A stretch of 64,000 bases of DNA from Myxococcales bacterium (lineage in GTDB: Bacteria; Myxococcota_A; Polyangia; Polyangiales; DASUME01), in assembly GCA_047601445.1 (NCBI GenBank), contig JASGJH010000001.1, forward strand, positions 4,768,001 through 4,832,000. The letters are read 5' to 3'. A program made the position numbers and the translations under genes. The notes beneath the pieces were generated by a model. That model was not told the origin of the DNA and searched no databases. It saw only the letters and a program-made list of their open reading frames with translations. Shown here piece after piece: positions 1 through 38,360 of the stretch; within the stretch, counting starts at the first letter, position 1; each line of letters starts with the position of its first letter.

Positions 1-345
1 GAGGCCAAGCGCCCCGTTGTCGCTGCAAGCCCGAAGCCGATGGCCGCAGCCACGCCAACCGTCTTGCCCGACATCGCGCCCGCGCCGGCCCTGTCCGTGG
101 AGATCCCAGAGCTGGCTCCCTCGGAGCCCACGCCCTCCCTCGTGACCGGTCCACTCGCACTCCCGGGGCCGACCGACGATTCCGCGCCCCGTCCACCGCG
201 CGCACGTCGCGGCGCACCCGAGGCCGCGCTCGAACGTGAGCTCGCGACGGGCGCGTCCGCAGCCGCGCCGGTTGCTGCCGAGCCCGCCACTTTGCCCGAG
301 CCCGTGACGGCGCGCTCGGGGCGCCTTTCCCGCAGCGAGTTTTGA
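1..345 (+). CDS. 3' end of a gene truncated by the window edge; Pro/Ala-rich tail, possibly of a Ser/Thr kinase
   Basis: Frame is open from base 1 to the TGA at 345. Low-complexity P/A linker ending in RSGRLSRSEF, directly before a TPR/PEGA gene, a common myxobacterial arrangement. Confidence 0.5.
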   Translation, partial: EAKRPVVAASPKPMAAATPTVLPDIAPAPALSVEIPELAPSEPTPSLVTGPLALPGPTDDSAPRPPRARRGAPEAALERELATGASAAAPVAAEPATLPEPVTARSGRLSRSEF

Positions 346-425
346 CGCCATCGAGCCAGCCCCTGCGAATCAATCATCCCAGTTCCCGTGTTCATTCATC
401 AGTTCAATCTCGCGGAGCCGACAAC

Positions 426-1340
426 ATGTCGCTGATCGTTACGGCCGAAGACAGCCACACCGAATCCCTCGTGTTGGGGCTGTCGACTTTGCTCTTCCTC
501 CTCGCGTTACAGCTCGCGCTCTCGGGTCTGACGCGCGCTCAGGAACCCGCGACACAGGCACCCGCTAGCGCAGGAGTCGCGGCCGAGGCCACGTCAGCGG
601 GCTCGTCGGCCGGGCCGGGCGCAGCCGAAGCCGACGCCCCCGGCAGCGTGTATTCGCGCGCCATCGACGCAGCCCTGATGGAGTACGAGCGCGGCAACTT
701 CGAGGAAGCGCGCGAGCACCTGCGCGCTGCGCACGAGGCCTACCCCAATGCGCGCACCTACCGCGGACTCGGCAAAGCCGAGTTCGAGCTACGCAACTAC
801 GGCGAGTCCGTGAAGATGCTGGAAGCCGCGCTGACGTCCCAGGTGAAGCCACTCGACGCAACGCTGCGCGCCGAGGTCGAGGCGATCCTTGCGCGTGCCC
901 GCGCCTACGTGGGCGAGGTTCACGTCAACGTCGAGCCCGGTACGGCCACCGTGAGCGTGGACGGCGTCCTGATGGCGAGCGGCCCCGACGCGGCTCTCGC
1001 CCTGGTGGTCGGCGATCACGTGCTCGAGTTCCGTGCATCGGGCCATCTGCCCGAGCGACGCGCCATCCGCGTGAAAGGCGGCGAGAGCATGACGGTGCGC
1101 GTGGTGTTGCCTTCGCCCAACGACTCTGGCGACGGACACCAAACCATCGTGGCGCTCCAGCCGCAGGCCTCCCCGCTGGTCGACACCGCCACCCGCAAGC
1201 GACGCTGGGTCTGGGCCAGCGTCGGCACGTTGCTCGTTGGCGGCATCGTCACCGGTGCAGTGCTCGCCGCACGCTCTGGTCACCGCGGGAATGGTGACGT
1301 GAGCGGAGGCACCACCGGCGTGGTGATCGAGAACCCGTGA
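426..1340 (+). CDS. TPR + PEGA-domain membrane/secreted protein
   Basis: N-terminal hydrophobic segment, TPR-like helices (YERGNFEEAREHLRAA...LGKAEFELRNY), PEGA-like beta domain (VNVEPGTATVSVDG...GDHVLEFRASG), C-terminal TM helix. ATG at 426 chosen over the upstream TTG. Confidence 0.75.
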   Translation: MSLIVTAEDSHTESLVLGLSTLLFLLALQLALSGLTRAQEPATQAPASAGVAAEATSAGSSAGPGAAEADAPGSVYSRAIDAALMEYERGNFEEAREHLRAAHEAYPNARTYRGLGKAEFELRNYGESVKMLEAALTSQVKPLDATLRAEVEAILARARAYVGEVHVNVEPGTATVSVDGVLMASGPDAALALVVGDHVLEFRASGHLPERRAIRVKGGESMTVRVVLPSPNDSGDGHQTIVALQPQASPLVDTATRKRRWVWASVGTLLVGGIVTGAVLAARSGHRGNGDVSGGTTGVVIENP

Positions 1341-25053: not shown

Positions 25054-25751
25054 CCTGCGACAAGCCCACCATCGTCTTGTTCGACATCGACGGTACGCTC
25101 TTGCTCACGGGCGGCGCCGGCAGGCGCGCCTTCGAGCGCTCGTTTCGCAGCGTGATCGGGCGCGCCGAATCGCTGGCCGGCTTCTCCTTTGGGGGCATGA
25201 CCGACCGCGCCATCGCGCGCATGGGCCTCGAAACCGCTGGCCTCAGCGCCGACGATGAGCGCATCGAGGCACTGCTCGACGCCTACGTGATGGCGCTCGA
25301 AGACGAACTCGCGCAACGCCCCAACTACCGCATCATGCCTCACGCGCGCGAGGTCGTGAGCGCAGCGCGCGAACACCCGCACGTGGCGGTCGGACTCGGC
25401 ACGGGCAACCTCAAGCGTGGCGCCGAGGCCAAGCTCCGCCACGGCGGGCTCTGGGAGCTGTTCGACTTCGGCGGCTTCGGCTGCGACCACGAGAACCGCA
25501 CCGAGCTCCTACGCACCGGCGCGCTGCGCGGCGCCGAGAAGCTAGGTCAGCCGCTGTCGCACTGTCGCATCGTGGTGGTCGGAGACACGGTGCGCGACGT
25601 GGTCGCGGCGCACGGCATCCTGGCCGATTGCGTGGGCGTCGAGACCGGCGGCATCTCGGCCCAGGAACTGCGTGCCGCGGGTGCGCACGCCGTGTTCCCG
25701 GACCTCTCGGCCGCGGGCGTACTCGAGGCTATTTTGCAGGGTGGTTTTTGA
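25050..25751 (+). CDS. HAD-superfamily hydrolase
   Basis: FDIDGTL motif I, TGN, VGDTVRD. Confidence 0.9.
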   Translation: MTCDKPTIVLFDIDGTLLLTGGAGRRAFERSFRSVIGRAESLAGFSFGGMTDRAIARMGLETAGLSADDERIEALLDAYVMALEDELAQRPNYRIMPHAREVVSAAREHPHVAVGLGTGNLKRGAEAKLRHGGLWELFDFGGFGCDHENRTELLRTGALRGAEKLGQPLSHCRIVVVGDTVRDVVAAHGILADCVGVETGGISAQELRAAGAHAVFPDLSAAGVLEAILQGGF

Positions 25752-27150
25752 CCCAGTCCACGATGGCGCGCGCCTTCGGATTCTGACTGAGCGCACCGCC
25801 CGTCTTCTCCTTGGCGCCCCAGGCACCGCTCGAGGACCAGCTGCCACTGTTCGCGTAGTGGGTGGTCATGGCGTAGAGCTTGGCGGACGCGTCGAGCCAT
25901 TCCTTGTACAGGTCGTAGGCCACTTGGTTGCGCGAGAAGGCGTCGGCGCCCTGCAACAGGTGTTGCCCGCCTTCGTAGCTGATCAGCTTCATGCTGGTCT
26001 TCGAGATCAGGTTCTTCTGAGACGTGGCCCAGGTGACCATGTCCGTGAGCGCCTTGCGGAACTGGGCGGCCACGTCCGCGGCGTTGCCGTTCACGCTGCC
26101 GTCGGCGCCCACATAGTTGGAGATCGCGTAATAGTCCGGCGTGCGCGAGCCGAAGTTCACGTTCGGATCCGCCAGCGCCTCCAGCTGCATCTGGGTGCCG
26201 TAATCGCTGCCGAGCTGGCCCGAGACGACCCAGCGCACGCGCGCGATCTCGCTGCCGTAGACCTTCACGAAGGCGTCGTACATGCGCGACGAGGCGTAGA
26301 CGTGGAACTTGAAGGATGCGCCGTAGCTGTCGTCGGCGAGCATCATCTGGGTGCCGCGGTTCTGACAATAGGTGGACTGTCCGAAGCCGGGGTTCCAGGT
26401 CTCGTTCGAGTACTCCACGTACAGCGTGAGGCCGGGATCGAGCTTCTCCTTGGCCAACTTGGCGAGCGAGGTGAAGAAGTTGTCGTCGGCGTTGGCCTCG
26501 TAGCTCTCGATGGCGAGGTGGGGCACCGTGATCCAGCAGTCCTTCTGCATGCGATTGCAGAGATCGAACATCCACTCGTAGGCGATGCCGCGCCCGCCCA
26601 CGTCGCCGCCGTTGCTGTTGCCGGTGGCCGACTGCTGCGTACGATCGGCCCAATTACGGATGGAGGAGTTGTTGGTGCCGCCGAAGTCCATGAAGCGGTA
26701 CACGGAGTAGTCCGCCTCCTCGAGGTCGCTCAAGAACGCCGGGTTCCACGGGTTCATGCTGGTGGCGAAGTTCACGCCCGAAGACCAGGCCTCCTCGGCC
26801 CAGCCGGCGCTCAGGAACCAGAAGTTGGTCCCCACGCGCATGCCGCTCCAGCTCTGCGCGGGCTTCGTGCCGGTGACTGGCGTGGAAGGTGTGCTCGGAC
26901 TGCCCGGGTTTGCCGGCTGGTCCGGCGCTCCGGAGTCGGCGCTCGCGCCGGGGGGCAGCTCTTCGTGATCCGCTCCCGCATCGCCCGCGAGGGGGCCGTC
27001 GGCATCGCCGCCAGACAGGTCGTCACCGGAGTCGGGCGTCTCTTCGATCTGGTTCAGGTGTTGATCGATCGGCGAGCCATCACTGCCGCAAGCACCGAGC
27101 AGAAGGATCGCAAAGAAAGGCATGAGACGGGCAGAGCTGAGGGCTCGCAT
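25729..27150 (-). CDS. Lipoprotein with a putative glycoside-hydrolase-like TIM-barrel domain
   Basis: LGAC lipobox, D/P-rich linker; RFMDF, YVEYSNETWN and SYEGGQH motifs resemble a clan-A-like catalytic pair. Confidence 0.7.
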   Translation of the reverse strand: MRALSSARLMPFFAILLLGACGSDGSPIDQHLNQIEETPDSGDDLSGGDADGPLAGDAGADHEELPPGASADSGAPDQPANPGSPSTPSTPVTGTKPAQSWSGMRVGTNFWFLSAGWAEEAWSSGVNFATSMNPWNPAFLSDLEEADYSVYRFMDFGGTNNSSIRNWADRTQQSATGNSNGGDVGGRGIAYEWMFDLCNRMQKDCWITVPHLAIESYEANADDNFFTSLAKLAKEKLDPGLTLYVEYSNETWNPGFGQSTYCQNRGTQMMLADDSYGASFKFHVYASSRMYDAFVKVYGSEIARVRWVVSGQLGSDYGTQMQLEALADPNVNFGSRTPDYYAISNYVGADGSVNGNAADVAAQFRKALTDMVTWATSQKNLISKTSMKLISYEGGQHLLQGADAFSRNQVAYDLYKEWLDASAKLYAMTTHYANSGSWSSSGAWGAKEKTGGALSQNPKARAIVDWVKNHPAK

Positions 27151-27480
27151 TCCGTGGACTCCTGGTTTCTGGAAAAGGGAAATCGCGGCGTCTGGGGCCG
27201 ACCTGCGGCACCGCGTCCGCCACAACGCGAGCTCCGTTCCTAGCAACCACGACTCGCGCGCTGCTCGTCGAAAGCCGTGTCGACGGGCAATTGAACGCAG
27301 CCTGGTCAGCTGCGCTCCTCGCTATCGGCTACGCACGTGACGCGATCGCGGGCGCGCAGAACGCCAGCACACGCTCGCTCTGTGGCAGCTCGAACCGGTG
27401 TCGAGGGGCCGCGCACATGTCTTGAATTCAGGCCAAAACCGTCGCAAGTTCAGCGCATGGTTCGCAGGCCGCGGCACACC

Positions 27481-28529: not shown

Positions 28530-28658
28530 TCCAACCGCTTATCGCCGCTCGGTCCTGGCCGTCAAGGTCACTCCCCGGAACCCTCCTGGTCACGGCCGTG
28601 GGGCCCGTGATCGGACCTGGCGCGCGGCGTCCCCATCCAGGCTCAGGTCGAACTCGGT

Positions 28659-28771: not shown

Positions 28772-28801
28772 GGCCGCAAGGCCAGGGGGAGGACGAGGGG
28801 C

Positions 28802-31800
28802 ATGGTTCGTAACAGCTACGACGTCGTGGTGGTCGGTGCAGGACCAGTGGGCTCGGTGGCTGCGGTGGCAGCCGCGCGGACCGGGGCACGCGTGCTCTTG
28901 CTGGAGGCCAATCCCGAAGCCGCGCGCCGCTTCGCGGGCGAATGGCTGCATCCCACGGGAGTCGCGGTGCTCGATCGCCTGCGCATCGGCCGCCTCGAAG
29001 GCGCCGACGCACGCACGGGCTACGGCTTCGTGGTGTTCCCGGACGACGGAAGCGAACCCGTGGAGCTCGCCTATCCGAGCGGCCAGGTCGCGCTGGCCTG
29101 CGAGCACTCGAGCATCGTGGAAGCGCTGCGCGAGCGCGCCGCCTCGCTCGACGAGGTCGACTATCTGCCCCACGCGCGCGTGACCAGCATCGAGGGTCAC
29201 CGCGTGACCTTCCGCACCCGCGAGGGTGAGCACAGCGTGCATGCCGGCAAGGTCATCGGCGCCGACGGGCGCTCCTCCGTGGCGCGCAAGGCGCTCGGGC
29301 TCTCCGCCCACGGCGCCCCGGTCTCGTACATGGCCTCGGTGGAGCTGCGCGGCGTGGAGCTGCCGGTCGAGGGCTATGGTCACGTGGTGCTCGGCGGGCC
29401 CGGGCCCGTGCTCATGTACCGCATCGGGCCCGACCTGATCCGCGGCTGCTTCGACGTGCCGCTGTCGTTCGACGCCAGCCGCCGCAACCCCACCTTCCTG
29501 TGGGACGGCTTCTCGGCCGTGCTGCCGGGGCGTCTGCGACGCTCCTTCCGCGACGCGCTCGAGCGGGGACCCGTGCACTGGGCCGTCAACCGCTTCGCGC
29601 CGCGCGGCTTCTATGGGCAAGGCCCTGTCTGGCTGGCGGGCGACGCGGTGGGGCATTTCCACCCGCTCACCGCGGCGGGCATGACGCTCGGCTTCCTCGA
29701 CGCCGAGCTCGCGGGCGAGACCGGCTCGCTCACCGAATACCATCGCACGCGCGAGCGCGGCAGCTACGTGCCCGAATTGCTCTCCAACGCGCTTTACCAG
29801 GTGCTCTCCCGCGAAGACGCCAGCGCCACCGCCGTTCGCAGTGCGGTGTACCGCGTGTGGCGCAAGAGCCCGTCCGAGCGCGAGCGCACCATGCGCCTGC
29901 TGATGGGCGCCACGTCCAGCCGCTCCACCTTCGGCGCCTCGTTCACGCGCATGGCCCTGTCGGCCTTCCGCAACACCATCAGCGAGCTCTCCCAGGCACG
30001 CCGCTTCGACGCGCTGCTGCCGTCGCTCGCCTCGTACCGTGAGTGGGTCCAGTGGCCCGCTGCCTCGCTCGCACCCTCCCGCGGACGTCGCCGCTATCGC
30101 ATGAAGAGCACCTCCGAGCGCCCGCTGCCCTGGCGCGGCCTGAAGCTGCTCAAGCCCAGCCAGATCGAGGCCGCTCCCGCGGTTCCGTTGATGGAAGCCA
30201 GCGCCGAGAAGGGCGAGGGCCCCACCCTACAAGAGGCGCTCTCGCTGGCCGGTGATGCCCTGCTCGTGGAGCTCAAGCGCCTGCACGAGCGCATCGGCCG
30301 CGATCCTCACTGGATGCTGATGCGCAGCGCCACGCGCATCGTGGCTGCCATCGACGCCGCCGACCTGGGCACCAGCATGGCCGCCCGCATGGGCCTGGCC
30401 CGCCGCCCCATGGCGCGTCTCGGCATCGCGAGCCTGCTCGGCGCCTACGAAGCCGACCCGCACGTCATCCGTGCCAGCGACTTCGCCTCGTTCATGCTCA
30501 GCCTCGTCACCCCCGACGACAGCTCCACCGTGGACCGCCTCGACGACGGCGTGCGCCACTTGCTGGCCTGCCAGCGTCCCAACGGCGGCTTCGCGCCGTG
30601 GCCGCAGCCGTCGGCGCAGCCCGATCTCGCGACCACAGAGCTGGCCTGCCGTGCACTCGCGCGCTGCCGCGATCGCTACGGCGACGACGGCGCCTTCCGC
30701 TATACCGACGCGCTCTCGCGCGCCCGGCGCTTCCTGCTCTCGAGCCAGGCCAAGGACGGCAGCTGGCCCGCCAGCGAGCTCGAGGGCGTCCTCAGCAACA
30801 CCGCCCACGCCATGCGCGCCCTGTCGGCAGTCGGAGAACCCGCGGCCTCCTCGGCTTTGCGCCGCGCCGCGCGCTTCTTGGCCTCGGCCCAGTCCGAAGA
30901 CGGTGTGTTCGCCGCGCGCGCAGACGAGCGCGCTGCCACACCCGAGCTCACGGCCCGCGCCGTCAACGCCTTGCTCACCGTGCGCGGTCCCCACTGGGGC
31001 GTGATCCAGCGCGCGGTTCCTCACTTGATCGCGCGCCTGGCCGACACGGTCGCGGTCGAAGTCCGCGAAGCCCGCAGCGAAGAGGCCTGGGAGCGCTGCT
31101 GCGATCTCGTCGACGCGCTCACCGCACTCGAGGCGCAGCGCCGCGCTCGACCGCGCCCCGAGCTGTTCCGCGCCCAGCAGTCGGGCGACGACTGGGCCTT
31201 CTGCAAGGAGAGCCTGGTGGCGGTCTCGCGCACCTTCTCCAAGCCGATCGCGATGTTGCCCGGCGACCTCGAGGTCGCGGTGACCTGCGGCTATCTTCTG
31301 TGCCGCATCGCCGACACCGTCGAAGATCACCCGGCCGTGCCGCGCGGGCAGAAGGACGACCTGTTCAACCGCTTCCTGAGCGTGCTCGAGCAGGGCGGCA
31401 GCGCGCGCGACTTCTCGATCGCCTTCGAGGCCATCGAGGGTGACGACGCCGAGCTCTCGCTGGCGCGCCAACTCCCGTGCGTCATGCGCGTGTTTACCTC
31501 GCTGCCCGAAGGCATGCAGGCCGTGGTCGGTCGCTGGGTGGCCGAGATGTCGCGCGGCATGAGCCTCTACACGCACCGTGAGCCCGGAGACGACGGCTTC
31601 GTGGCCCTCTACACGGTCGAGGATCTCGAGCGCTACTGCTACTACGTGGCGGGCACCGTCGGGCACATGCTCACCGAGCTCTTCGCGGAGGCCATGGGCG
31701 ACCGCGTCGACAAGCGCACGCTGGCGGAGATGCGGCATCACGCCGAGGCCTTCGGCGCCGGACTGCAGCTGGTGAACATCCTCAAGGACGTCACCGACGA

Positions 31801-32218
31801 CCGCCAACGCCGCTGGTCCTTCATCCCGCGCGCAGCCTGCGAGCGCGTGGGCATCAGCATCGAGAACCTCACCGACGAGGACGTGCGCGACCGTGCCCAC
31901 CTGGCGGTGGCGCCGCTGTTCGACTTGGCCAAGGTCAAGCTCGACCGCGCGCTCGCCTACGCCCTGTCCATCCCCCCGGATCAAAAGGGGGTGCGCTTGT
32001 TCTGTCTGTTGCCACTCTGGATGGCGGCCCTCACGTTGGTGCACGCCCGCGGCAACGACGCCATGTTCTTGAGCGACGAAGAGGTGAAGATCTCTCGCCA
32101 GTCCGTGGAGCAGGTCATCGCGGATTGCCTCGCGCATGTATCCGATGATGCCGCGCTCAAGGCGCGCTACCGCCAACTGTGGACGGTGCGCGAAGCACAA
32201 GAAGAACGCCGCGCTTGA
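28802..32218 (+). CDS. Fusion of squalene monooxygenase, a QW-repeat (prenyltransferase/squalene-oxidase repeat) domain and squalene synthase
   Basis: GAGPVG, GEWLHPTG, ADGRSS, GDAVGHFHPLTAAGMT (SQMO); QRPNGGF, QAKDGSW, QSEDGVF (QW repeats); VSRTF, YLLCRIADTVED, YCYYVAGTVG, LQLVNILKDVTDD (SQS). GAGG precedes the ATG at 28802. Confidence 0.88.
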   Translation: MVRNSYDVVVVGAGPVGSVAAVAAARTGARVLLLEANPEAARRFAGEWLHPTGVAVLDRLRIGRLEGADARTGYGFVVFPDDGSEPVELAYPSGQVALACEHSSIVEALRERAASLDEVDYLPHARVTSIEGHRVTFRTREGEHSVHAGKVIGADGRSSVARKALGLSAHGAPVSYMASVELRGVELPVEGYGHVVLGGPGPVLMYRIGPDLIRGCFDVPLSFDASRRNPTFLWDGFSAVLPGRLRRSFRDALERGPVHWAVNRFAPRGFYGQGPVWLAGDAVGHFHPLTAAGMTLGFLDAELAGETGSLTEYHRTRERGSYVPELLSNALYQVLSREDASATAVRSAVYRVWRKSPSERERTMRLLMGATSSRSTFGASFTRMALSAFRNTISELSQARRFDALLPSLASYREWVQWPAASLAPSRGRRRYRMKSTSERPLPWRGLKLLKPSQIEAAPAVPLMEASAEKGEGPTLQEALSLAGDALLVELKRLHERIGRDPHWMLMRSATRIVAAIDAADLGTSMAARMGLARRPMARLGIASLLGAYEADPHVIRASDFASFMLSLVTPDDSSTVDRLDDGVRHLLACQRPNGGFAPWPQPSAQPDLATTELACRALARCRDRYGDDGAFRYTDALSRARRFLLSSQAKDGSWPASELEGVLSNTAHAMRALSAVGEPAASSALRRAARFLASAQSEDGVFAARADERAATPELTARAVNALLTVRGPHWGVIQRAVPHLIARLADTVAVEVREARSEEAWERCCDLVDALTALEAQRRARPRPELFRAQQSGDDWAFCKESLVAVSRTFSKPIAMLPGDLEVAVTCGYLLCRIADTVEDHPAVPRGQKDDLFNRFLSVLEQGGSARDFSIAFEAIEGDDAELSLARQLPCVMRVFTSLPEGMQAVVGRWVAEMSRGMSLYTHREPGDDGFVALYTVEDLERYCYYVAGTVGHMLTELFAEAMGDRVDKRTLAEMRHHAEAFGAGLQLVNILKDVTDDRQRRWSFIPRAACERVGISIENLTDEDVRDRAHLAVAPLFDLAKVKLDRALAYALSIPPDQKGVRLFCLLPLWMAALTLVHARGNDAMFLSDEEVKISRQSVEQVIADCLAHVSDDAALKARYRQLWTVREAQEERRA

Positions 32219-32235
32219 TCTAGGAGAGCATCCTG

Positions 32236-34260
32236 ATGGAAACGTTGAGTTCGATGGAGCGAAGCCCGAACCGAGACGTTCCTCCCAAGCCGCCCGTGTC
32301 CGAGCCCGAGCTCGACACGCAGCTCGAACAAACCATCGATCGTGCCCTCGTCCACCTCGCATCTCAGCAGAGCGAGAGCGGCGCGTGGCTGGGCGACTAC
32401 GGCGGCCCCATGTTCCTGTTGCCGATGTACATCGGCACCTGCTACGCGACGCAGACCACGATCCCCGAGGACGTGCGGGCCGACATGGTCCGCTACCTGC
32501 GCAACACGCAGAACGCGGACGGCGGCTGGGGCCTCCACGTCGAGAGCCATAGCTACCTCTTCACGAGCACCATCATCTACGCGGCCCTGCGCTTGTGCGA
32601 TGTGCCCGCCAACGATCCCGACCTGGTGCGCGCCCGCGCGTTCATCCACAAGCACGGCGGTCCCACCCACTCGGCCTCGTGGGGCAAGTTCTTCCTGTGC
32701 CTGCTCAACGTCTACGACTACCGCGGTATGAACCCGGTGCCGCCCGAGCTCTGGCTCCTGCCCAAGCAGCTCCCTATGCACCCCGGCCAGCTGTGGTGCC
32801 ACTCGCGCATGGTCTCGCTGCCCATGTCCTTCCTGTACGCCAAGCGCGTGCAGATTCCGCTCGACGAACGCGTGCTCTCCCTACGCGCCGAGCTCTATCC
32901 GCAGGGCTTCGAGGCCGTGGACTGGGAGCGCTCCCGCGACAGTGTGGCGGAGAGCGACGACTACGTGCCCGTGCACGCCCTGATGAAGGCCGCCAACCGC
33001 GTCTTGGGGGCCTACGAGGAGCTGCCCAACAAGCCGCTGCGCCCGCGCGCGCTGGCCGTGACACTGGAGCAAATCGACGCCGAAGATCAGAACACGAACT
33101 ACGTGTGTTTGGGCCCCGTCAACAAGCTCTATCACATGTGGGTCTGGCACCACGAGCGCCCCTACGGCACCGAGCTCAAGCGGCACCGCGAGCGTCTGCC
33201 CGAGTATCTCTGGAAGGCCAAGGACGGCACCAAGATGCAGGGCTATCACTCGTCGCAGCTGTGGGACACCACGTTCGCGGTTCAAGCGGTGCACGCGAGT
33301 GGCCGTGAGAACGACTACGCCAAGCTGCTCGAGCGCGCCCATCAGTTCATCGACGACAACCAGGTGCGGGAGGATCCGCCGCTCAAGGCGCAGAGCTTCC
33401 GCGACCCCACCAAGGGCGGCTGGTGCTTCTCGGCCAAAGACAACGGCTGGATCGTCAGCGACTGCACCGCCGAGGGTTTGCGCGCAGCCATGTTGCTCGC
33501 GCCCCGCGTGAAGACACCGCTCTCGAAGGACCGCCTGCTCGACGCGGTGGAGTACCTGCTGTGGAGCCAAACCCAGGGCGGCGGCTGGGCCAGCTACGAA
33601 CCCACGCGCGGCCCGCGCTGGCTCGAGAAGCTCAACCCCTCCAACTGCTTCCACAACATCATGATCGACTACCCGTACGTGGAGTGCACGGCGGCGTCGA
33701 TGCTGGCGCTCGAGCAGTTCCGCGAGCTCTACCCGAACGATCGCGAGGCCGACATCGCGCGCGCCATCGAGCGCGGCAAGAGCTTCCTGCTGCGTGAGCA
33801 GCGCTCGGACGGCTCCTTCGAGGGCTCCTGGGCCATCTGCTTCACCTACGGCACCTGGTTCGGCATCGAAGGTCTCAAGGCAGGCGGACTCGCCGAGAAG
33901 AGCGCGCCCATCCGCCGGGCATGCGAGTTCCTGATCTCCAAGCAGCTGCCCGACGGCGGCTGGGGCGAGACTGCGGAGAGCAACCTCAAGCGTACCTACG
34001 TACACGCCGAGAAGGGTCAGGCCGTGATGACAGCCTGGGCATTGCTCGCGCTGGTCGCAGGCGGCGAGGGCAAGTCACGGGCGGTGGAAGAGGGCATTCG
34101 CTTCCTGATCACCCAGCAGAGCGACGACGGCAGCTATCCGGACGAGCACATCGCCGGCATGTTCAACAAGAGCTGCGCCATTCACTACGAAAACTACCTC
34201 AAGGTCTTCCCGTTGTGGGCCCTGGGTGAGGCTCGCCGCGCACGCGGCGTGGGCAGGTGA
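32236..34260 (+). CDS. osc: 2,3-oxidosqualene cyclase
   Basis: DYGGPMFL, QNADGGWGLHVE, WCHSR, SQLWDT, VSDCTAE (OSC-type catalytic motif, not DxDD), several QW repeats. Confidence 0.95.
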   Translation: METLSSMERSPNRDVPPKPPVSEPELDTQLEQTIDRALVHLASQQSESGAWLGDYGGPMFLLPMYIGTCYATQTTIPEDVRADMVRYLRNTQNADGGWGLHVESHSYLFTSTIIYAALRLCDVPANDPDLVRARAFIHKHGGPTHSASWGKFFLCLLNVYDYRGMNPVPPELWLLPKQLPMHPGQLWCHSRMVSLPMSFLYAKRVQIPLDERVLSLRAELYPQGFEAVDWERSRDSVAESDDYVPVHALMKAANRVLGAYEELPNKPLRPRALAVTLEQIDAEDQNTNYVCLGPVNKLYHMWVWHHERPYGTELKRHRERLPEYLWKAKDGTKMQGYHSSQLWDTTFAVQAVHASGRENDYAKLLERAHQFIDDNQVREDPPLKAQSFRDPTKGGWCFSAKDNGWIVSDCTAEGLRAAMLLAPRVKTPLSKDRLLDAVEYLLWSQTQGGGWASYEPTRGPRWLEKLNPSNCFHNIMIDYPYVECTAASMLALEQFRELYPNDREADIARAIERGKSFLLREQRSDGSFEGSWAICFTYGTWFGIEGLKAGGLAEKSAPIRRACEFLISKQLPDGGWGETAESNLKRTYVHAEKGQAVMTAWALLALVAGGEGKSRAVEEGIRFLITQQSDDGSYPDEHIAGMFNKSCAIHYENYLKVFPLWALGEARRARGVGR

Positions 34261-34796
34261 CCCCCGCGCGGCTTGCCGTGCGTGTGGGTGTCATCGGTCT
34301 TGAGCACGCTGGGCGCCACCGCTTCGCCTAACTCGGGCCCCTCGTGATCGAGCAGTGAAGCCTCGTGGATGGCCTCGTCCGTGAGGTCCACTTCGTCCCA
34401 GGCATGGCTCGCGCCTTGCCCGGTGTTGAAGGGACGCGTCTGCGCCAGCCTGGGTGTATTCGGGGGCGGCGGGAGCCCGCGGGCCAAACGCTTGGTCGGC
34501 CCGTTCGCCATGGCCCTGAGCAGCGCGCGCTCCCATGATTTCAAGCTTCCCGCCTCGGCTTCGAGCTCGAGCGCGTCGCTGAGCGCGGCGCCGTCGTCGC
34601 TCGGGAAGTCGTCCTCGTTGAGTTCGCGCGGCCACTCGGAGTTCACGCTCTGCTCCACCGCCGACGCCAAGAACTGCTTGCCGAGGTCGTCTGGATCCAC
34701 GGAGAGCCCCGACTCCGCGGGCGCCACCGATCCGACCTGCTCGGAGATGTGCGTTGGCTGCGCGGTCACCGAAAGAGATGTCTTCAGCGTCGCCAT
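34194..34796 (-). CDS. Hypothetical acidic protein
   Basis: ORF fills the gap between osc and the next gene and overlaps the osc 3' end convergently by 67 nt. No recognisable motif. Confidence 0.55.
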   Translation of the reverse strand: MATLKTSLSVTAQPTHISEQVGSVAPAESGLSVDPDDLGKQFLASAVEQSVNSEWPRELNEDDFPSDDGAALSDALELEAEAGSLKSWERALLRAMANGPTKRLARGLPPPPNTPRLAQTRPFNTGQGASHAWDEVDLTDEAIHEASLLDHEGPELGEAVAPSVLKTDDTHTHGKPRGGHLPTPRARRASPRAHNGKTLR

Positions 34797-34862
34797 ACGC
34801 AATTCAATCTGGCGCCGTCGTGGGACGCTTGCCAGGTCTTTCCACCTTGCACTCGCGAAACA

Positions 34863-35729
34863 CTAGGCGGCGGAGGCGCGGCGGTACTCCGGAGACAATG
34901 CCGCTTCGCGCTTCCAGGCCTCGAGCAGGGCGCGGTTATCGTGTTGCCAGGGATGAAAGTTCACTTTGAAGAAGGCTAGATAGGGCTTGAGCAAGCTCTG
35001 TAGACCGCGCGGCCGAAACACGAAGCGACCGAGCTCGCTCCAGGCGCCGACGCTGCCGAGAATGCCGTCGGCGTGCATCAACCTCAGCTGCTGCTCCACC
35101 ACCTTGCCCCAGAAAATGGCGGTCGTACCGAGCATCACCACGGCGCGCTCGGCGTAGGTCCCGCCCACCTGCTCGAAGACGTCGAAGGCCACCGCCTTGT
35201 GCTCGTTCTCCTCGGCCGCGTGCCAGCGCCAGAGCGCCGCCATGGCCGGGTGGGCGCCCTCGAGCAAGGTCGAGTCAGGCTGGAGCAGAAGTTCGGCGAG
35301 CAACGCCGTGAAGTGCTCGAGGCAGACGGTGACCGCGAGCTGGATACGCTTGGGATCGTGGCGCACGCCCGCCAGGATGCGCTCGATGCGGCGCTCCATC
35401 GCGTCGATGGGAAACCCCTGGGCGCGCAGCATCTCGTTGTACCGTACGTGCTCGCGGCTGTGGATGCCCTCCTGGGCGCAGAACGCCTGCACTTGCCGGC
35501 GCAGGGGCTCGCTCCGAAGCTGCTCACGATAGGCCTTCACGCTGTGCACGAAGAAGCGCTCACCGGGCGGAAAGAACACCGACAGGTTGTTGAAGAGCAA
35601 CGTCACGGGCCGCGATCCGTTGTGCCAGTAGCGCGGCACCGCGGGGCCCACATCGAAGCAGAAATTTCGGATCTCGGGGATCGGCTCGGCGCCTGCTTGG
35701 TCGGGCATCGAGCGGCTCGCTTGCGACAT
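34863..35729 (-). CDS. Predicted metal-dependent hydrolase (ferritin-like ExxH family)
   Basis: FPPGERFF, QEGIHSREH, LEHFTA, WHAAEENEHKAVAFD, FHPWQHD. GGAGG SD. Confidence 0.88.
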   Translation of the reverse strand: MSQASRSMPDQAGAEPIPEIRNFCFDVGPAVPRYWHNGSRPVTLLFNNLSVFFPPGERFFVHSVKAYREQLRSEPLRRQVQAFCAQEGIHSREHVRYNEMLRAQGFPIDAMERRIERILAGVRHDPKRIQLAVTVCLEHFTALLAELLLQPDSTLLEGAHPAMAALWRWHAAEENEHKAVAFDVFEQVGGTYAERAVVMLGTTAIFWGKVVEQQLRLMHADGILGSVGAWSELGRFVFRPRGLQSLLKPYLAFFKVNFHPWQHDNRALLEAWKREAALSPEYRRASAA

Positions 35730-35999
35730 GATCTACCTCCGAGCCTGCGCACGCAGCTCTTAGAAGCCTGCGCCGCCGAGCCGTTCGCCGGTGCCTCTTC
35801 GATTGGTCATCTGAGGCCAATTCTGCGGGAAATAGCGCGGCGATTCTCCTCGCTGAGGCGTAAATGCACCGCACAGCCCCTGGACCGCATGGGAGCGCGC
35901 TACCGGATCGAACCGAAAGCCGTGCGATTCGTGCGGGCGCTTTGTGCGGAGGCGGGAGAGTCGGGCTACTTTTTCGCCGCCCTCGGAGAAAGCTCCCGC

Positions 36000-38360
36000 A
36001 TGTCGCGCTTTACCTGGTTCTTGTGTGCTTCGCTGCTGTTTGCTTGCCGTCCAGCCGCTCCGCTCGAGCTCTCGACCGCGAGTCTGCCCCCGATCTCCGT
36101 GCCCCAGGCCCCCGAGACGCCGCAAGAGCGCGCGCACGATGCCGCGTTGTTCAAGGCAGCCAAGCAGACCTTCGATCAGCGCTGCGTGGTCTGTCATGGC
36201 TGCTACGACGCGCCTTGCCAGCTGATCTTGAGCTCCTTCGAGGGCGTGACGCGCGGCGCGAGCAAGGACAAGGTCTACGAGGCGACACGCCTGCGCGCGG
36301 CCCTACCCAGCCGGCTCTTCATCGACGGCCGCAGCGTACCCGAGTGGCGCGACAAGGGCTTCCATCCGGTGCTCCCGGAAGGCATGGAGCGTGACCCTGG
36401 TGGGAGCCTCTTGTTGCGCATGCTGGAGCTCAAGCGCGAACATCCCTTGCCGCTCGGACAGGGTTTGCCCCAGGGCTTCGAGCTCGGCCTCGACCGCGAG
36501 GCCAGCTGCGCCGCACGCGAGGAGTTCCCCAAGTACAAGGAGGAGCACCCGCTGTGGGGCATGCCGTATGCGCTGCCCGGGCTCGATGAGCAGGAACACG
36601 GCAGCGTAACGCGCTGGGTGGAAGCAGGTGCACCGGCCGCACAGCTCGACACGTTGCACCCCGACGTACTCGACTCGATCTCGCGTTGGGAGGCCTTCCT
36701 CAATGAGCCGAATCCCAAATCACGCCTGATGGCGCGCTACATCTACGAGCATCTGTTCCTGGCCAACCTCTACCTTTCGGATCTGCAGCCCGCCGATACC
36801 GAGGCCGAGAGCCGCACCTTCTTTCGCCTCGTGCGCTCGCACACGCCGCATGGCGAGGCCGTGGACGAGATCCCGACGCGCAGGCCCTTCGACGACCCGG
36901 GCACCAGTGGTTTCTACTACCGCTTCGTACGCAAGCACGACACCACCCTGGCCAAGACCAACATGCCCTACGCGCTCAACGACGCGCGCATGGCTCGCTG
37001 GCGCGAGCTGTTCCTCACGCCGACCTACGAAGTCACCGAGCTCCCGTCCTACGAGCCCGAAGCCTCCGCCAATCCTTTCCGCGCCTTTCACGCCATTCCT
37101 GCCAGCTCGCGCTACCGCTTCATGCTGGACGAAGCCGAGTTCACCATGATGGGCTTCATCAAGGGCCCGGTGTGTCGTGGACAGGTGGCGCTCGACGTCA
37201 TCCAGGACCGCTTCTGGATCACCTTCGTGGACCCGGACTCGCCCGTGCTGGAGGCCGAGGACGCGTTCCTCTCGAACGTGACCGATCGCCTGGACTTGCC
37301 CGCCGGGGACGGCAGCAACGGGCACTTGTTGAGCTGGCTCCGCTATGCGCGCAACGAGAAGAAGTACCTGGAAGCCAAGAGCCAACTGCTGGCCAAGCTC
37401 GCGCAGGTGCCCGGGCGCGTGAGCCTGGACCTGGTGTGGGACGGCGACGGCAGCAACGACAACGCTGCGCTCACCGTACTCAGGCACTACGACAGCGCCA
37501 CGGTGATCAAGGGCTTCGCGGGGACGGCCCCCAAGACCGCCTGGCTGGTGAGCTACGCCATCCTCGAGCGCATCCACTACTTGCTGGTGGCGGGCTTCGA
37601 CGTGTTCGGCAACGTGGGGCATCAGCTCAATACCCGCATGTACATGGACTTCTTGCGGATGGAGTCGGAGTTCAACTTCCTCGCCTTGCTGCCCAAGTGG
37701 CGCAGGCGCCCGCTGGTGGACGCATGGTACCGCAACGTGAGCGGTTCGGTGCGAGACGAGGTCTACGGCAAGATCGCCCAGTTCAACCAGGACACGGACA
37801 TCGCGTACAAGACCAGGCAACCCGAGCTCGAGCTCTACGAGATGCTCAACAGCAAGCTCGAGCCGGTGCGGCGAGCACAGCGCGCGCTGGAGGAGGAGCC
37901 CGACGCGAGCGCGCGCGTGGCCCTGGAGCGATTGGTGGCAAGCGTGGGAATCGCGGCCTCGCTGCTGCCGGAGACGAGCTTCCTCGAAGTGCGGCGCGCG
38001 AACCAGGAGTCCGTGTACTTCACCATCTTGCGCGACAGCAGCCACACCAACGTGGCGCACATGTTCCGCGAAGATGCCCGGCGCGTGCCCGCGGAGGATC
38101 GCCTGAGCGTGCTGCGCGGCTTCGTGGGTGCCTATCCAAACGCGCTGTTCAGCGTGGCCGAGGCGGAGCTCGCGGCCTTCGTGGAGAGCGCTCTGGCCCT
38201 GCGAGACACCAACTCCTATACGCTCTTTCACGCGCGCTTCGGGGTCAGCCGCGCGAGCCCCACGTTCTGGTCCACGCTCGACGCCATGCACCGCGCCTAC
38301 GCTGCGCTTGCACCACTCGAGTCGGGCTTGTTCGACCTCAATCGCCTCGACCCCAACTAG
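36000..38360 (+). CDS. cti: Fatty acid cis/trans isomerase (heme c protein)
   Basis: Signal/lipobox, RCVVCHGCYDAPCQL, GMPYALP, YEHLFLA, FIKGPVCRGQVAL, GFDVFGNVGHQ, GLFDLNR. ATG at 36000. Confidence 0.92.
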   Translation: MSRFTWFLCASLLFACRPAAPLELSTASLPPISVPQAPETPQERAHDAALFKAAKQTFDQRCVVCHGCYDAPCQLILSSFEGVTRGASKDKVYEATRLRAALPSRLFIDGRSVPEWRDKGFHPVLPEGMERDPGGSLLLRMLELKREHPLPLGQGLPQGFELGLDREASCAAREEFPKYKEEHPLWGMPYALPGLDEQEHGSVTRWVEAGAPAAQLDTLHPDVLDSISRWEAFLNEPNPKSRLMARYIYEHLFLANLYLSDLQPADTEAESRTFFRLVRSHTPHGEAVDEIPTRRPFDDPGTSGFYYRFVRKHDTTLAKTNMPYALNDARMARWRELFLTPTYEVTELPSYEPEASANPFRAFHAIPASSRYRFMLDEAEFTMMGFIKGPVCRGQVALDVIQDRFWITFVDPDSPVLEAEDAFLSNVTDRLDLPAGDGSNGHLLSWLRYARNEKKYLEAKSQLLAKLAQVPGRVSLDLVWDGDGSNDNAALTVLRHYDSATVIKGFAGTAPKTAWLVSYAILERIHYLLVAGFDVFGNVGHQLNTRMYMDFLRMESEFNFLALLPKWRRRPLVDAWYRNVSGSVRDEVYGKIAQFNQDTDIAYKTRQPELELYEMLNSKLEPVRRAQRALEEEPDASARVALERLVASVGIAASLLPETSFLEVRRANQESVYFTILRDSSHTNVAHMFREDARRVPAEDRLSVLRGFVGAYPNALFSVAEAELAAFVESALALRDTNSYTLFHARFGVSRASPTFWSTLDAMHRAYAALAPLESGLFDLNRLDPN

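Follow-up and report, generated by a model that had tools for sequence, protein, structure and literature searches.

A squalene epoxidase–squalene synthase fusion with an apparently inactive cyclase barrel as the likely entry to a dispersed sterol pathway in a myxobacterium

The closest described counterparts of the gene analyzed here are MsbE, a published fusion of squalene epoxidase (SE) and oxidosqualene cyclase (OSC) (PMC7074536), the "fused SMO/OSC homologs" (SMO, squalene monooxygenase) published elsewhere (PMC10070321), and the cluster of Stigmatella aurantiaca, in which ERG1, squalene synthase (SQS) and ERG7 are adjacent as 3 separate genes (Desmond and Gribaldo, PMC2817430). Here, we analyze a 64,000-nucleotide stretch (hereafter the window) of the genome of a Myxococcales bacterium (GCA_047601445.1; genome G000), which contains a gene at 28802–32218 on the forward strand encoding a 1138-amino acid protein (P0001) composed of an N-terminal SE domain, a barrel resembling the beta domain of a cyclase and a C-terminal SQS domain, as delineated by open reading frame (ORF) translation, Pfam profiles, homolog comparison and AlphaFold2 modeling, and followed by an OSC gene (protein P0002). 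Coordinates are positions in the window unless a genome or locus is named. The architecture is a variant on the published sterol-enzyme fusions. Motifs, fold, conservation and genomic context make it likely that P0001 opens the sterol pathway as a bifunctional enzyme leading from farnesyl diphosphate (FPP) to oxidosqualene, with a dead barrel between its 2 active domains; the same role had been put forward in the original prediction, made from the nucleotide sequence of the window alone.

The gene consists of a single frame of 1138 codons without an internal stop, in agreement with that prediction, and its ATG is preceded at a distance of 9 nt by a Shine-Dalgarno-like GGAGG (28788–28792, +). 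An alternative in-frame GTG start at 28598, which would give 1206 amino acids, was rejected, since homologs begin at the ATG at 28802. The motifs singled out in the prediction were all located in the protein, namely GEWLHPTG (residues 46–53), HPLTAAGMT (287–295), CRIADTVED (834–842), YCYYVAG (945–951) and LQLVNILKD (988–996). The GC content at third codon positions is 0.88–0.91 across all 4 segments of the gene, so that there is no foreign-looking join. In the AlphaFold2 model, based on a 92-row alignment (mean pLDDT 90.1, pTM 0.72), the protein forms 3 compact domains with a soft linker near residues 444–475 (30131–30226, +), which is poorly conserved (mean column identity 0.28, with 0 columns conserved at ≥90%) and contains blocks of low pLDDT.

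The SE (monooxygenase) domain spans residues 3–443 (28808–30130, +) and was assigned from PF01494/PF08491, the match to SQLE, Foldseek and a residue table. The Pfam families FAD_binding_3 and SE both match above cut-off over residues 6–396, with PF08491 reaching 73.3 bits against a cut-off of 20.1, and the motifs GAGPVG, GEWLHP, DG, Y206 (human Y335), GDA and HPLTAAGM are present. The best sequence match is human SQLE (6c6n, E = 2.2e-24), and Foldseek with the whole model listed only monooxygenases, the top 3 being human SQLE (TMt 0.81–0.83). The flavin site is complete with respect to GxGxxG, the equivalents of human E165 and Y335, GD and HPxT. Among the 65 SE sequences retained after duplicate removal (33 with SQS as fusion partner, 18 with OSC, and 14 encoded by stand-alone genes), all 33 SQS-fused ones keep the flavin-site residues G12, G14, G17, E47, Y206, G280, D281, H287 and P288. 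Apart from the fusion, PF08491 has no match in the window genome, where no search aimed at the alternative epoxidase AltSQE was made. Judging from fold, motifs and context, this flavin-dependent domain probably epoxidizes squalene, using O2 to yield 2,3-oxidosqualene; support in vivo comes from relatives only. Outside the myxobacterial genomes, a plasmid of Planktothrix agardhii (NZ_LR882940.1) carries the gene for a monooxygenase that shares 47.6% identity with the SE domain, and in a plasmid search 3 of the 72,556 records matched the fusion, each across one domain only.

The SQS domain occupies residues 795–1126 (31184–32179, +), as assigned from PF00494, alignments with SQS structures in the PDB, conservation in the 92 rows and hydropathy. 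SQS_PSY (PF00494) matches at residues 807–1099 (E = 1.6e-43), and the domain contains the SRTF flap, DTVED, Y945, Q989, NILKDVTDD, F1067 and VKISR. Invariant in 92 of the 92 homologs are D838, E841, D842, Y945, Q989, N992, K995, D996, D1000, F1067 and V1095-K1096-I1097-x-R1099, and the conserved residues align with DTLED, Y171, DYLED, F288 and VKIRK of the human enzyme. Both Asp-rich motifs (D838-T-V-E-D842 and D996-V-T-D-D1000) and the catalytic Tyr (Y945) are in place, as are the features of the second half-reaction, namely the SRTF flap (human residues 50–54), F1067 and the invariant V-K-I-x-R. For VKIRK, a role as NADPH site has been proposed, and its conservation is described as particular to SQS within the class I isoprenoid enzymes (PMC10378455). 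Hydropathy of the domain revealed no C-terminal transmembrane anchor. The window genome contains 2 PF00494 genes, the other of which scores best on CrtB models and adjoins carotenoid-type genes, which we take from their sequence to be crtI, crtE and crtY; the fusion is the only SQS candidate in this genome, and HpnE was not found at cut-off in any of the 5 genomes tested, including that of the window. The motifs indicate that the C-terminal domain likely makes squalene from FPP and NADPH, 2 FPP giving presqualene diphosphate and then, with NADPH, squalene.

Further SQS fusions were seen among the annotated loci. L014 (8001–9947; Candidatus Binatia) encodes an SQS of the fused clade and a polyprenyl synthase domain in one protein (PF00494 + PF00348), a possible fusion leading from isopentenyl diphosphate to squalene, and L025 contains a similar frame of 666 amino acids. 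In L048 (516–3518; Polyangiaceae), SQS is fused to a full squalene-hopene-type cyclase in a protein of 1001 amino acids.

The middle domain (residues 476–785; 30227–31156, +) is a complete (α/α)6 barrel, as delineated by VIA-align, hhalign and column counts. Pfam gives a weak squalene-cyclase match within residues 579–710, with SQHop_cyclase_C at 609–707 (28.5 bits, cut-off 26.1). Since Foldseek with the whole model returned monooxygenases only, the domain was folded alone (pLDDT 86.4, pTM 0.87). Its best structural match among 48,161 chains compared with VIA-align is human OSC 1w6k (Z 26.4, root-mean-square deviation 3.3, 296 residues), the alignment of the 310-residue domain covering the range 67..727 of the 725-residue chain, followed by squalene-hopene cyclase (Z 24.7), the single-domain myxobacterial cyclase 8paj (Z 23.9) and MstE (Z 21.1). 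With Z values of up to 21 for unrelated (α/α)6 barrels, similarity of fold is by itself not specific. Profile alignment of the domain with 3 sets of OSCs by hhalign (probabilities of 99.1–99.5%) pairs the helices one after another, beginning at the TAE of DCTAE and ending close to the C-terminus of OSC. The long loops of the OSC active site are deleted in the domain, and the QW-type motifs CQRPNGGF, SQAKDGSW and AQSEDGVF are retained. The second (gamma) barrel of OSC and squalene-hopene cyclase is missing. None of the protonating Asp motifs DCTAE, DxDD and DxD was found in the domain; their position maps to residues 559–563 (SDFAS), and the acid at the catalytic position is not conserved across the 92 rows (S559 column, S28/E19/R18/A11; D560 column, D in 40 of 92). 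We regard the middle domain as an OSC-like beta domain that has no gamma domain and is apparently catalytically dead. The "QW-repeat" of the original prediction is therefore right as to the motifs and wrong as to a loose repeat, the segment being a complete barrel that matches the OSC beta domain. The barrel is less conserved than its neighbors (mean column identity 0.51, compared to 0.68 for SE and 0.71 for SQS; 33 of its 310 columns are conserved at ≥90%), and the stretch between SE and SQS measures 326–395 amino acids in full forms, about 230–260 in one subgroup and 21–164 in others.

A homolog search yielded 342 proteins with E ≤ 0.001 among 8000 scored candidates. According to domain profiles, the best 120 of these 342 comprise 112 proteins with the order SE-middle-SQS, 6 with SE-SQS and no middle domain, and 2 missing one end, and homologs of the same architecture come from 5 source collections as well as from isolate genomes. 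Thus, the fusion is real and not an assembly artefact, and assembly errors at the junctions, which the original prediction had named as grounds for giving it up, are not borne out, given that independent homologs share the fusion. The SE and SQS identities, the fusion, the link to OSC and the likely FPP-to-oxidosqualene role that it had proposed are likewise supported by Pfam, the SQLE and SQS alignments, conservation and Foldseek.

The SE domain is matched in 125 of the 301 genomes of the order to which the window belongs, including all 9 other members of the genus (the tally includes the unpublished genome G122, which enters no other result). The 65 SE sequences come from 40 of these loci and 80 loci from a collection scan, annotated together, and the architecture is not rare, being present in many families of the order and in cultured sterol producers. 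D187_003106 of Cystobacter fuscus DSM 2262 (EPX59202.1, 1163 amino acids) and AKF09140.1 of Sandaracinus amylolyticus (1146 amino acids) are the same three-part fusion, the proteins of the 2 lineages being about 48–49% identical to P0001. The former is the protein listed as SE for C. fuscus DSM 2262, a producer of squalene and cycloartenol (PMC4919349, Tables 3 and 4), and S. amylolyticus produces lanosterol and zymosterol (PMC4919349). The fusions of genomes G493 and G475, 96–97% identical to D187_003106, are the only strong SE matches there, whereas in G045, in which the fusion is 100% identical to AKF09140.1, a second SE, fused to OSC, is present and the PF00494 genes are the fusion and a CrtB-like gene only. 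With no other strong SE in G493 and G475 and no other SQS candidate in G045, different relatives support each of the 2 activities. The order of a Myxococcaceae locus was sampled with 201 genomes, and the SE domain is matched in 46 of them; among those, G493 and G475 have close matches in long frames and carry the fusion followed by OSC as in the window, with not every other long frame fully annotated. This patchy occurrence suggests that the fusion was transferred into the Cystobacter lineage. In one locus of genome G162 (L092:5690–9713), the SQS part of the fusion is split over 3 frames by frameshifts or sequencing errors. In 2 Cystobacter-type loci, the OSC is followed by a 754-amino acid gene (L136:4756–7017 and L137:4283–6544), which we presume may be a sterol transporter of the MMPL/RND kind and which has a 40%-identical homolog in the window genome (G000:C1:3663005–3664969).

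The OSC gene (32236–34260, +; 674 amino acids) lies 17 nt downstream of the fusion, as predicted, the fusion stop ending at 32218 and the OSC ATG standing at 32236. The protein was identified by Pfam, NCBIfam and its match to human lanosterol synthase (629 bits), and has DCTAE with D409, H189 as the equivalent of H232, Y337/N403/V407 and both barrels; it scores above cut-off on TIGR01787 and reaches 711 bits on TIGR03463, short of the cut-off of 851. V407 occupies the position of human V453, at which V corresponds to lanosterol and I to cycloartenol (PMC4919349, Fig. 7 legend). Because of this V, cyclization of oxidosqualene by the OSC would most likely give lanosterol. All same-genus OSCs read (9 loci from 8 genomes, and the window) have N/V at human positions 449/453, whereas the 13 other members of the OSC clade, outside the genus, have H/I, pointing to a probable switch from a cycloartenol- to a lanosterol-type product within the genus. 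We take the Y/N/V combination to be also the pattern of plant lanosterol synthases.

The description of the locus as a minimal two-gene cassette in the original prediction holds for the locus itself, but not for the pathway. The genome inventory contains a mevalonate cluster with a polyprenyl synthase (G000 C1:6188263–6194876), SdmB-like, SdmA-like and CYP51 genes (C1:9105520–9113119), ERG2 (C1:8187158–8187820), ERG24/ERG4 (C1:3798341–3799627) and a methyltransferase with Sterol_MT_C (PF08498, 75.9 bits; C1:3438985–3440004, L151:5986–7005). With sterol genes elsewhere in the genome, the fusion and OSC are, on gene content, the entry to a longer, dispersed pathway, in which the CYP51, SdmAB-like, ERG24/4, ERG2 and methyltransferase genes would finish the sterol. 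De novo side-chain-methylated sterols from myxobacteria are unconfirmed in isolates (PMC10070321), and the methyltransferase is a candidate for producing them. Between the SdmA-like gene and CYP51 lies a gene for a 1091-amino acid aldehyde dehydrogenase-GMC oxidoreductase fusion (L147:10771–14043).

Several observations weigh against an FPP-to-oxidosqualene role of P0001. The Y195-Q168 pair of human SQLE is replaced by F76 and H50, and the Y195F mutant of the human enzyme loses >90% of its activity (PMC6327030); the best NCBIfam model for the SQS domain, TIGR01559, gives 124–129 bits, below its equivalog cut-off of 286.75, and K stands where human SQS has R218; and G493 and G475 own a second, stand-alone SQS, so that the squalene of Cystobacter need not stem from the fusion. 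The replaced pair would fit a protein in which the SE domain is inactive or acts on another substrate, leaving only SQS activity, as would the report that Corallococcus with SE and OSC gave only squalene in culture (PMC4919349). We consider this improbable, since F is found at the Y195 position in 61 of the 65 myxobacterial SE sequences and H at the Q168 position in all 65, stand-alone genes beside OSC included, which argues that the pair is probably a lineage trait rather than decay. Moreover, decay affects the paired SE-OSC copies and not the SQS-fused class, the window genome has OSC and downstream sterol genes yet no PF08491 match besides the fusion (AltSQE aside), and it is the fusion that is listed as the SE of the cycloartenol producer C. 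fuscus. A C-terminal domain that goes no further than presqualene diphosphate, or yields dehydrosqualene or phytoene like HpnD, CrtM or CrtB, would agree with the sub-cut-off SQS score and with weak matches to HpnD, HpnC and CrtB models (30–50 bits), but is very improbable in view of the 124 bits on the SQS model compared to ≤50 on the others, the invariant equivalents of VKIxR, the flap and F288, and a genomic context of OSC, with a CrtB-like gene present separately in the genome and HpnE not found at its cut-off; a stand-alone myxobacterial SQS homolog also remains under the TIGR01559 cut-off (94 bits). As for an assembly or frameshift artefact joining separate genes, the window does come from one assembly with a contamination figure of 5.4%, yet the recurrence of the fusion in 112 of the best 120 homologs, across collections and isolates, leaves this a negligible chance.

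We favor a middle barrel that is a dead OSC beta domain and would act as a spacer or scaffold. It could instead be functional, binding squalene or oxidosqualene, anchoring the protein to the membrane or docking OSC, and thereby provide real channeling. A complete, confidently modeled barrel kept in most of the best homologs, with its 33 strongly conserved columns, is compatible with such a role, but its column identity is lower than that of SE and SQS, the stretch is shortened in some subgroups, there is no gamma domain, and in closely related forms SE and SQS are encoded by separate adjacent genes; on balance, we find a functional barrel unlikely. The channeling of squalene envisaged in the original prediction received no support here, the middle domain being variable and sometimes absent and related SE and SQS also occurring as separate neighbors, and the benefit of the fusion would more likely be that the 2 activities are held together at the membrane in a fixed ratio than that a tunnel joins them. 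More doubtful still is a scenario in which an SE-OSC duplicate became an FPP-to-oxidosqualene machine, with the de-catalyzed barrel kept for lipid handling or OSC docking and without release of squalene between synthase and epoxidase or of oxidosqualene on its way to the cyclase; if true, the barrel as a module would make this a natural anchor-free sterol metabolon. A trifunctional protein, in which the middle domain would work as a single-domain class II cyclase (MstE-like, or as in 8PAJ and 8PAK from Archangium/Cystobacter), is hardly to be expected: single-barrel cyclases exist and match the model, as seen from the Z scores of 8paj and MstE, but no acid is conserved at the DCTAE position, the loops of the active site are deleted, the sequence match to human OSC is longer in a single stretch than that to 8paj, and the middle domain is dispensable in relatives.

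Clues to the origin of the dead barrel come from SE-OSC fusions, which form a clade with a support of 100 in a quick SE tree. Tandem SE-OSC and SE-middle-SQS genes are found in 11 fetched loci (L001, L002, L081, L082, L091, L092, L097 and L104–L107), in which drift at the flavin-site residues R43, Y206, D281, H287 and M294 is seen in the SE part of the SE-OSC copy, whereas 7 unpaired SE-OSC copies retain R43, Y206, D281 and H287. The cyclases split into 2 clades, each with a support of 100; middle domains prefer the SE-OSC-type cyclase profile over the window-type profile in 73–88 of 92 cases (6 draws) and score lowest on average on squalene-hopene cyclases. We lean toward a history in which an SE-OSC gene was duplicated, the cyclase of one copy decayed and SQS was captured; the barrel would be what is left of that cyclase half after loss of its gamma domain. 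The preference is a measured one because the tree test is neutral and the middle domain of the window barely discriminates. Speaking against this history, the margin by which the window domain prefers the SE-OSC-type clade is slight and was seen in 5 of 6 draws, and the window-type clade was favored by one of 4 small-profile draws; the first middle-domain helix matches the first cyclase helix of SE-OSC best but weakly (probability 27%); the middle domain sits on a long branch outside both OSC clades in the cyclase tree; and approximately unbiased tests rejected neither placement (p 0.37 and 0.23). The window OSC falls in the other cyclase clade than the SE-OSC type and is thus not the sister of the barrel relic. 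In both quick trees, the split SE and SQS genes branch from within the fused ones, which suggests secondary splitting of the fusion into separate genes, against which stands the fact that a single clade of fused SQS is not rejected (p 0.16). If the duplication is true, the 2 copies would show mirror-image decay, with a dead cyclase in one and a decaying epoxidase in the other.

The neighbors of the fusion and OSC lie on the opposite strand, with a GNAT acetyltransferase upstream and an unannotated ORF and a metal-dependent hydrolase downstream; the locus is therefore a two-gene unit. The 17-nt gap contains a ribosome-binding-like AGGAG (32222–32226, +), and this site and the short gap are the basis on which the 2 genes are probably co-transcribed. 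A promoter scan at the locus found no sigma-70-like site, and terminator-like matches were at chance level (2 found, 2.6 expected). The ORF right after OSC (34194–34802, −; 202 amino acids) has no Pfam match, nor does an ORF of about 470 amino acids with a lipoprotein-like N-terminus at 25729–27246 (−). Two ORFs downstream, at 35073–38360 (+), is a fatty acid cis/trans isomerase (PF06934, 840 bits), another membrane-lipid modifier, the true start of which is probably later than 35073.

No published description of an SE-SQS fusion was found in the literature searched, which lay largely outside subscription journals and included supplements for PMC8237579 and PMC7306690 only. In the accessible text and supplement of Hoshino and Gaucher (PMC8237579), "fusion" was not found and "fused" occurs only in a reference title, and no passages on such a fusion were found in the accessible parts of Santana-Molina et al., Wei et al. 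(PMC4919349) and McShea et al. AKF09140.1 is nevertheless used in the SQS tree (Fig. S12, PMC8237579 supplement), and its residues 4–437 appear again in the following pages, apparently the tree of squalene monooxygenases. The SE-middle-SQS architecture seems undescribed in print, though widespread and present in public databases. Surveys count these proteins as plain SE or SQS, and gene-presence tables for myxobacteria, from which the sterol genes of eukaryotes have been proposed to derive (PMC8237579), miss this history of rearrangement. The chemistry of each step is already known, which limits the surprise; still, one gene without a predicted transmembrane helix would cover 2 successive steps that precede all sterols and triterpenes derived from oxidosqualene, and an SE-SQS fusion could serve engineering. 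The natural series of full, shortened, barrel-less and split forms is suited to asking whether fusion channels a very hydrophobic intermediate, and myxobacterial SEs, if active, manage without the hydrogen bond that the human enzyme needs.

Compared to the known enzymes, the SE domain has the fold, GxGxxG, E165, Y335 and HPLT.GM in common with human SQLE (6C6N; PF08491), but differs from it in F for Y195, H for Q168, the lack of an N-terminal extension and the fusion itself. The SQS domain shares both Asp-rich motifs, Y171, the flap, F288 and VKIxR with human FDFT1 (1EZF/3VJ8), 7WGH and TIGR01559, from which K for R218, the sub-cut-off TIGR01559 score, the missing C-terminal membrane helix and the C-terminal position in a fusion set it apart. 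With 1W6K, 1GSZ, MstE (6SBB) and 8PAJ, the barrel has the (α/α)6 fold and QW motifs in common (Z 21–26); unlike the beta domains of triterpene cyclases and single-domain class II cyclases, it lacks the catalytic Asp motif and the active-site loops and sits between 2 other enzymes. At the level of loci, the S. aurantiaca cluster unites the same 3 consecutive activities, but as separate genes and with no middle barrel mentioned in the accessible text. The Cystobacter-type loci L136 and L137 have the same order of fusion and OSC as the window, but their OSC carries the cycloartenol signature (H/I) in place of N/V, and the Sandaracinus-type locus L081 has an additional SE-OSC fusion gene. MsbE and the other SE-OSC fusions resemble the window fusion in combining an N-terminal SE with cyclase-derived sequence in bacterial sterol gene clusters; however, the cyclase of MsbE is complete and contains the product-determining valine, and SQS is not part of the protein, whereas in the window fusion the SE is followed by a beta barrel without the acid and then by SQS.

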